Assembly (NCBI RefSeq): GCF_003334785.1 | Contig: NZ_QOWV01000014.1 | DNA length: 64,000 nucleotides | Direction: 5' to 3' (one strand) | Source: Escherichia coli | GTDB taxonomy: Bacteria > Pseudomonadota > Gammaproteobacteria > Enterobacterales > Enterobacteriaceae | Shown: in pieces, positions 680 to 1,162 of the stretch | How the letters are laid out: each line of letters opens with the position of its first letter | Position numbering within the stretch: the stretch's first letter is position 1 | Translations under genes and position numbers: made by a program | The notes under the pieces: model-generated | What the model saw: only the letters and a program-made list of their open reading frames with translations | What the model was told of the DNA's origin: nothing | The model's database searches: none

Positions 680-756
680 GGCTACGTAGCTCAGTTGGTT
701 AGAGCACATCACTCATAATGATGGGGTCACAGGTTCGAATCCCGTCGTAGCCACCA
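680..756 (+). tRNA. metT: tRNA-Met (elongator, anticodon CAU)
   Basis: 77-nt sequence GGCUACGUAGCUCAGUUGG...CUCAUAA...GUAGCCACCA with cloverleaf features and an encoded 3' CCA. Confidence 0.9.
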
Positions 757-765
757 TCTTTTTTT

Positions 766-850
766 GCGGGAGTGGCGAAATTGGTAGACGCACCAGATTT
801 AGGTTCTGGCGCCGCAAGGTGTGCGAGTTCAAGTCTCGCCTCCCGCACCA
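766..850 (+). tRNA. leuW: tRNA-Leu (anticodon UAG, long variable arm)
   Basis: 85-nt sequence GCGGGAGUGGCGAAAUUGGUAGAC...UUUAGGU...CGCCUCCCGCACCA. Confidence 0.9.
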
Positions 851-873
851 TTCACCAGAAAGCGTTGTACGGA

Positions 874-948
874 TGGGGTATCGCCAAGCGGTAAGGCACC
901 GGTTTTTGATACCGGCATTCCCTGGTTCGAATCCAGGTACCCCAGCCA
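874..948 (+). tRNA. glnU: tRNA-Gln (anticodon UUG)
   Basis: 75-nt sequence UGGGGUAUCGCCAAGCGGUAAGGCACCGGUUUUUGAUACCGG...CCCCAGCCA. Confidence 0.9.
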
Positions 949-963
949 TCGAAGAAACAATCT

Positions 964-1040
964 GGCTACGTAGCTCAGTTGGTTAGAGCACATCACTCAT
1001 AATGATGGGGTCACAGGTTCGAATCCCGTCGTAGCCACCA
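964..1040 (+). tRNA. metU: tRNA-Met (elongator, anticodon CAU), second copy
   Basis: Identical in sequence to the first tRNA-Met copy at 680-756. Confidence 0.9.
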
Positions 1041-1087
1041 AATTCTGAATGTGTCGAATATGTTCGGCAAATTCAAAACCAATTTGT

Positions 1088-1162
1088 TGGGGTATCGCCA
1101 AGCGGTAAGGCACCGGATTCTGATTCCGGCATTCCGAGGTTCGAATCCTCGTACCCCAGCCA
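1088..1162 (+). tRNA. glnV: tRNA-Gln (anticodon CUG)
   Basis: 75-nt sequence differing from the UUG isoacceptor in the anticodon loop (UUCUGAU) and T-arm. Confidence 0.9.

Follow-up and report, generated by a model that had tools for sequence, protein, structure and literature searches.

The analysed stretch of Escherichia coli DNA, hereafter the window, is 64,000 nucleotides long and contains five tRNA genes, all located on the plus strand between positions 680 and 1162 (ARAGORN); outside this region no tRNA gene was detected by ARAGORN in the 64 kb. The tRNA model of Rfam recovered the same five sites with scores of 57.6–71.1 bits (gathering score 29) and had no match beyond these five within positions 300–1400. 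The genes are arranged in the order Met(CAU)-Leu(UAG)-Gln(UUG)-Met(CAU)-Gln(CUG), with asnB on one side and ubiF on the other. The preliminary description of this DNA had reported the same genes, coordinates, and anticodons, all of which were correct. The features of the locus are as follows:

1–300, plus strand: 3′ end of asnB (asparagine synthase B), the upstream neighbour, according to the annotation of the ECCTRSRTH03 and FDAARGOS_1077 loci in a 1:1 alignment with the window
611–639, plus strand: predicted operon promoter found by scan, with the −35 element TTGACG, a 17-nt spacer, and the −10 element CATAAT, followed by the G+C-rich motif gcgccccgc; same as in K-12
680–756, plus strand: tRNA-Met (CAU), elongator, equivalent of metT (ARAGORN; Rfam, 71.1 bits); identical to K-12 metT
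766–850, plus strand: tRNA-Leu (UAG), equivalent of leuW (ARAGORN; Rfam, 57.6 bits); identical to K-12
874–948, plus strand: single tRNA-Gln (UUG) (ARAGORN, K-12 alignment, and repeat analysis)
964–1040, plus strand: tRNA-Met (CAU), equivalent of metU (ARAGORN and Rfam)
1053, plus strand: substitution in the spacer between metU and the following Gln gene, G in the window and A in K-12 (pairwise alignment)
1088–1162, plus strand: single tRNA-Gln (CUG) (ARAGORN, K-12 alignment, and repeat analysis)
1168–1202, plus strand: predicted Rho-independent terminator with an 11-pair stem, a 4-nt loop, and a T-rich tail, found by terminator scan; identical to K-12
1316–2491, minus strand: ubiF, the convergent downstream neighbour, according to the annotation of loci aligning 1:1 with the window

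The asnB and ubiF flanks are the same in K-12, where asnB likewise adjoins the operon, and in the other E. coli genomes inspected. The site at 611–639 is the only sigma-70-like site in positions 300–1400, and its position and conservation suggest that it functions as the promoter of the tRNA genes. The two Met genes (680–756 and 964–1040) form an identical 77-nt direct repeat with a spacing of 284 nt. Between the terminator and ubiF, at approximately 1205–1300, two palindromic units that resemble each other, one containing tgtcgaatgcgatgttgacacgtcttatcc and the other tgtcggatgcgacgctgccgcgtcttatccgacctacgg, are REP-like and identical to K-12. With its position, its promoter/terminator pair, and its gene order, the locus is the standard metT tRNA operon of the Enterobacteriaceae, which has one promoter and one terminator. 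The E. coli reference arrangement of seven genes, in which each tRNA-Gln is present as a tandem pair, was not found here; five instead of seven genes represent a difference in copy number and not in kind. The K-12 metT operon is co-transcribed as one precursor that is processed by RNase P (PMC2241853).

In K-12 MG1655 the metT operon consists of seven genes, metT and leuW followed by glnU-glnW, metU, and glnV-glnX, as the preliminary description had correctly stated. The two operons share the position between asnB and ubiF, the promoter, the terminator, the spacers, and the tRNA sequences, but the span from the first to the last tRNA gene is 704 nt in K-12 (seven genes) and 483 nt in the window (five genes). 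Pairwise alignment of window positions 560–1330 with K-12 yielded two gaps and one substitution (at 1053), the sequences being otherwise identical. The first gap comprises 109 columns, corresponding to one Gln(UUG) gene of 75 nt and a 34-nt spacer, and the second 112 columns, corresponding to one Gln(CUG) gene of 75 nt and a 37-nt spacer; the earlier claim that one copy of each is missing was thus accurate. In K-12 the Gln genes form direct repeats with spacings of 109 and 112 nt, so that each gap equals one repeat period, and the gap ends fall inside perfect direct repeats of 75–78 nt. Because it lies inside such a perfect repeat, the breakpoint of the Gln(UUG) contraction has no finer placement. 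This pattern is the signature of misalignment driven by homology, and at the level of sequence the contraction is shown to be a misalignment between these 75–78-nt repeats; the preliminary description had proposed recombination between the tandem tRNA-Gln copies.

The spacer between glnU and glnW (TCTTCTTCGAGTAAGCGGTTCACCGCCCGGTTAT) and that between glnV and glnX (ATTTATTCAAGACGCTTACCTTGTAAGTGCACCCAGT) are both absent from the five-gene operon. The retained Gln(UUG) gene (874–948) is preceded by the glnU-side spacer and followed by the glnW-side spacer, and the retained Gln(CUG) gene (1088–1162) is preceded by the glnV-side spacer and followed by the glnX-side terminator. Since the retained Gln genes combine the upstream spacer of the first copy with the downstream sequence of the second copy, a native leader and trailer are kept for every tRNA. 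The retained genes are identical to those of K-12, and the five-gene operon looks fully functional, as judged from these features.

Over the approximately 48.5 kb compared, 13 substitutions separate the window from MG1655, and at 8542–8546, between lnt and gltI, it has an empty site where MG1655 carries IS5D (1,195 bp). Based on these substitutions and the absent IS5D, the strain is a very close relative of K-12 but not MG1655. The earlier statement to this effect therefore stands, although the tRNA gene count from which it had been derived is no valid marker: gene number alone does not identify a strain because assemblies labelled as K-12 derivatives (MG1655p, ME8067, and MC1061) also show reduced operons. 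Apart from IS elements of the respective genomes, the window has no indels relative to K-12 or to E. coli IAL7250 over approximately 48–49 kb (IAL7250 differs from it by seven SNPs and one IS insertion), and the consensus, as far as can be read from these comparisons, appears free of signs of poor quality. The tandem repeats contracted within the window are both Gln pairs. No other repeat of similar geometry was found by TRF in the approximately 50-kb K-12 counterpart, which thus offers no internal control for a collapse.

Over positions 1500–26000, the window is matched at 100% identity by seven complete genomes, four of which (CFS3292, PC6, NCTC9100, and JNQH497) were inspected at the operon. 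All four have no differences over these 24.5 kb and possess the seven-gene operon. Deleting the 109-bp and 112-bp units from the sequence of each of them reproduced the window exactly over 1,480 nt, which means that these relatives also carry the G allele at position 1053. As seven genes are found next to 24.5 kb without a difference, the five-gene state is younger than any substitution in this region; on these sequence comparisons, it is a very recent derived state and not the reference of the lineage. The proposition that the lineage's reference operon itself has five genes, which the preliminary description had named as the finding that would overturn it, does not hold. Its broader version, according to which five genes are ancestral and K-12 has undergone lineage-specific duplications, could appeal to the few species outside Escherichia that have fewer Gln copies. 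It is opposed, however, by the seven genes in the four genomes with identical flanks, by the correspondence of the window to these relatives minus exact units, by the approximately 96% of 5,426 complete E. coli genomes in which neither contraction junction is present and the median of four Gln-gene matches per complete genome, by the seven-gene operons of the species representatives of E. albertii, Citrobacter, and Enterobacter, and by the Salmonella operon, described as consisting of the same seven genes (PMC5400242). The identical-flank relatives and the exact unit deletions refute five genes as the reference of the lineage, and practically no credence is left for an ancestral five-gene operon.

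Elsewhere in the window, the substitutions LipB T187M (at 34674) and DpiB T42A (at 44035) are absent from the compared relatives whose sequence extends over these sites, namely four of the six genomes fetched. They occur in 156 and 326 index blocks of public assemblies, respectively, and this wide spread identifies them as markers of a sub-lineage rather than as unique changes. No contig returned in the searches for these two substitutions was identical to the window. For positions 26001–51000, the bit score of the best match fell short of a perfect one by an amount estimated to correspond to about three mismatches.

The frequency of the contraction was determined in a survey set of 5,426 complete E. 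coli genomes with junction queries, for which a genome was counted only if the E-value was low enough to require one unbroken match over the full length. The junction leuW-[one Gln(UUG)]-metU was present in 71 genomes (1.3%), the junction metU-[one Gln(CUG)]-terminator in 143 genomes (2.6%), and the full five-gene form in 13 genomes (0.24%). The five-gene contraction is thus rare in public genomes, but the 13 observed cases contrast with 1.9 expected if the two contractions were independent (Fisher p = 3e-8). A 122-nt query covering the single-Gln(UUG) junction had no match in JGI metagenome contigs. The 1,201-nt locus of the window was found at 100% identity in the five-gene genomes ECCTRSRTH03, FDAARGOS_1077, CEA106S, and STK39-3-E, whose gene order and spacers equal those of the window. 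Elsewhere these four genomes differ from the window by 3–19 substitutions (20–50 kb compared); FDAARGOS_1077 additionally shows two small gaps, and differences associated with IS1 occur in ECCTRSRTH03 and CEA106S. An identical five-gene allele on differing backgrounds implies that this form arose, or was mis-assembled, repeatedly, and no clade inheriting it was found among the four identical-operon public genomes compared.

The survey also revealed operons that are hardly compatible with life. In MC1061 (NZ_CP195014.1) the operon consists of Met-Gln(CUG) only, in ST648 (NZ_CP008697.1) of Met-Leu-Gln(CUG), and in IAL7250 of Met-Gln(CUG)-Gln(CUG). All three operons are without tRNA-Gln(UUG), and those of MC1061 and IAL7250 are also without leuW; a second operon match in the whole genome was found neither in MC1061 nor in ST648, and IAL7250 had one further place. 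Both leuW and tRNA-Gln(UUG) are predicted essential elements, and they belong to an experimentally essential transcription unit (PMC11480407). Since essential tRNAs are missing, these assemblies are almost certainly collapsed. Further RefSeq assemblies labelled as complete have such reduced operons without a second operon match (WB61, GF47, AVS0947, IPCEC48, and HS13-1). Of the 13 five-gene genomes, ten belong to series that also contain other aberrant operons (GF, AVS, IPCEC, CEA, STK, and TUM): in the GF series, at least 12 genomes with an aberrant operon fall into a range of 86 accessions (CP172127–CP172212), the AVS series has at least 16 aberrant operons, and IPCEC, CEA, STK, and TUM have several each. 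Together with the excess of double contractions, which suggests a cause acting at the genome level such as the assembly pipeline, these observations point to a technical origin of much of the copy-number variation of the metT operon in public genomes. Project-dependent collapse that includes non-viable configurations is thus a feature of the public collection, although the source of the window may not share those pipelines.

How the five-gene form of the window came about was weighed on this database evidence, and a collapse of the Gln repeats in an organism that really has seven genes is considered the probable, if by no means assured, explanation. Assembly or consensus building would have misaligned the Gln repeats and dropped one unit from each pair; the organism itself would carry seven genes, and a halved Gln-tRNA gene dosage would be no property of the strain. 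A collapse in assembly is the second finding that the preliminary description had named as overturning it, and the database evidence makes it no less likely than a real deletion. Collapse is favoured because most five-gene examples stem from projects with demonstrably faulty versions of the locus. Gaps of exactly one repeat period and edited relatives that match over 1,480 nt are just what a collapse gives, and the lack of phylogenetic depth of the five-gene state was counted in the same direction. A tentative case can be made for the alternative that the deletions genuinely occurred in the cell, by unequal crossing-over or replication slippage between the 75–78-nt identical tandem tRNA-Gln genes, in two separate events that removed one glnU/W and one glnV/X unit and left the operon functional. 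The unit-precise gaps inside perfect repeats fit this alternative as well, all four tRNA species are kept and identical to K-12, and the otherwise clean window without indels other than IS elements speaks against collapse. So do the experimental record of recombination between repeats of the same operon (PMC5400242), the analogous single-copy alaWX allele in three separate EDL933 assemblies (see below), and the one-plus-one complement of Morganella psychrotolerans, viable in principle, in a group whose species differ in Gln copy number. Moreover, the frequency of single contractions is similar (1.3, 2.6, and 2.5%) at three loci with comparable repeat geometry, and losing a redundant tRNA gene copy can be an advantage when the medium is poor (PMC9981150). 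Genuine deletion would, however, demand that two rare events happened independently of each other in a single, very young lineage whose nearest relatives have seven genes, the double-contraction excess sits in a few projects that also yielded non-viable configurations, and no clade inheriting the five-gene form was found. Of what would characterize an in vivo contraction, the window displays gaps of one repeat period with ends in perfect repeats and a state derived relative to the closest relatives, but neither inheritance within a clade nor replication in assemblies of the same strain.

Two further explanations received little weight. As only 64 kb of the genome are visible, the two missing Gln genes could have been relocated to a place outside the window, but the window contains no other tRNA genes, a Gln query of the five-gene genome TUM9757 matched two places genome-wide against the median of four, and all four Gln genes of K-12 are located in the metT operon (PMC11480407); relocation is therefore very unlikely. 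It is doubtful, but somewhat easier to conceive, that the window's operon truly has five genes and that metT is a naturally hypervariable copy-number locus of E. coli, contracting to five and expanding to 11 genes via its internal repeats. If this were true, lineages could retune their supply of tRNA-Gln, tRNA-Met, and tRNA-Leu fast, for example by shedding copies in nutrient-poor niches.

Whether collapse or deletion produced it, the locus is a copy-number variant of a well-known operon that arose by textbook repeat contraction and of which identical copies are already public. All tRNA-Gln genes of E. coli reside in this one essential operon (PMC11480407), so that a real deletion would halve the gene dosage of both glutamine tRNAs, with one gene per isoacceptor instead of two, and would offer a minor case from nature in which repeat contraction tunes tRNA dosage. 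In a study of other tRNA genes, which did not include the Gln genes, lost redundancy was reported to slow growth when media are rich, and in poor media its effect was often neutral or favourable (PMC9981150). If the five-gene form is an artefact, as the favoured collapse of the Gln repeats would have it, the gene number of this operon is unreliable in public assemblies and unsuited to strain marking or to unchecked analyses of tRNA gene counts. The metT locus could then act as a cheap check of assembly quality, given that several genomes labelled as complete are without essential tRNAs there.

Among the closest known counterparts of the contraction is pUST314, a sequenced spontaneous metT/metU recombinant of a plasmid-borne Salmonella metT operon (PMC5400242). 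Its deletion was driven by homology between two identical genes of this tRNA operon and has its endpoints within the repeats (PMC5400242), which matches the contraction in the window. It differs in that the 77-nt Met repeats were used, leuW-glnU-glnW was removed, and the plasmid was under selection (PMC5400242), whereas in the window the Gln repeats were used and every tRNA species was kept.

A second comparison is offered by the unlinked alaW/alaX pair (K-12 positions 2518041–2518231), an 81-nt perfect tandem repeat with a period of 115 nt. A single-copy alaWX, from which one 115-bp unit is lost, was found in 133 of the 5,426 complete E. coli genomes, and its carriers include three EDL933 assemblies, Xuzhou21, other O157:H7 genomes, KO11FL, and BL21(RP). 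As in the window, the contraction amounts to one unit and occurs at a similar frequency, but in a separate operon. Because independent EDL933 assemblies agree, some of the alaWX cases seem real, at least in part; the window has no such replication. In ECCTRSRTH03, one of the genomes with the identical five-gene operon, and in MC1061, alaW-alaX is likewise down to one copy, which adds to the signs of a technical origin. The co-occurrence of alaWX and metT contractions within genomes looked only modestly enriched according to a rough estimate among the matches listed, and no weight was placed on it beyond these two cases. Tandem tRNA pairs in general show a contraction in approximately 1–3% of public genomes.

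Expanded operons were also observed. STK78-E (NZ_CP162185.1, positions 3326537–3327587) has an eleven-gene form, (Met-Leu-Gln(UUG))x3-Met-Gln(CUG), in which the Met-Leu-Gln unit of 284 bp is present three times, and three junction copies are also present in TUM2805, GF130, GF8, GF153, and GF54. These forms come mostly from the same projects as the contractions and may reflect amplification or mis-assembly.

Across the Enterobacterales, 90 complete metT-type loci of species representatives were compared. Two copies of each Gln gene (2+2) were present in 33 of these loci, 2+1 copies in 24, 1+2 copies in 10, and 1+1 copies in a single locus, that of Morganella psychrotolerans, which is the sole exact five-gene operon among the 90. 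Rearranged metT operons occur in further Enterobacterales and their relatives, among them Dickeya undicola, Lonsdalea quercina, Budvicia, Providencia, and Zobellella, with gene orders such as Met-Leu-Gln(UUG)-Gln(CUG)-Met-Gln(CUG) and Met-Leu-Gln-Gln-Met-Leu-Gln; such arrays suggest anticodon switching or unit duplication over evolutionary time. The Met-Leu-Gln...Met-Gln backbone is conserved in the metT-type operons of the Enterobacterales, as it is in the window, but the variation in Gln copy number within this order lies between species and genera with diverged spacers, whereas the window differs in this respect from seven-gene E. coli genomes to which it is otherwise identical over 24.5 kb.
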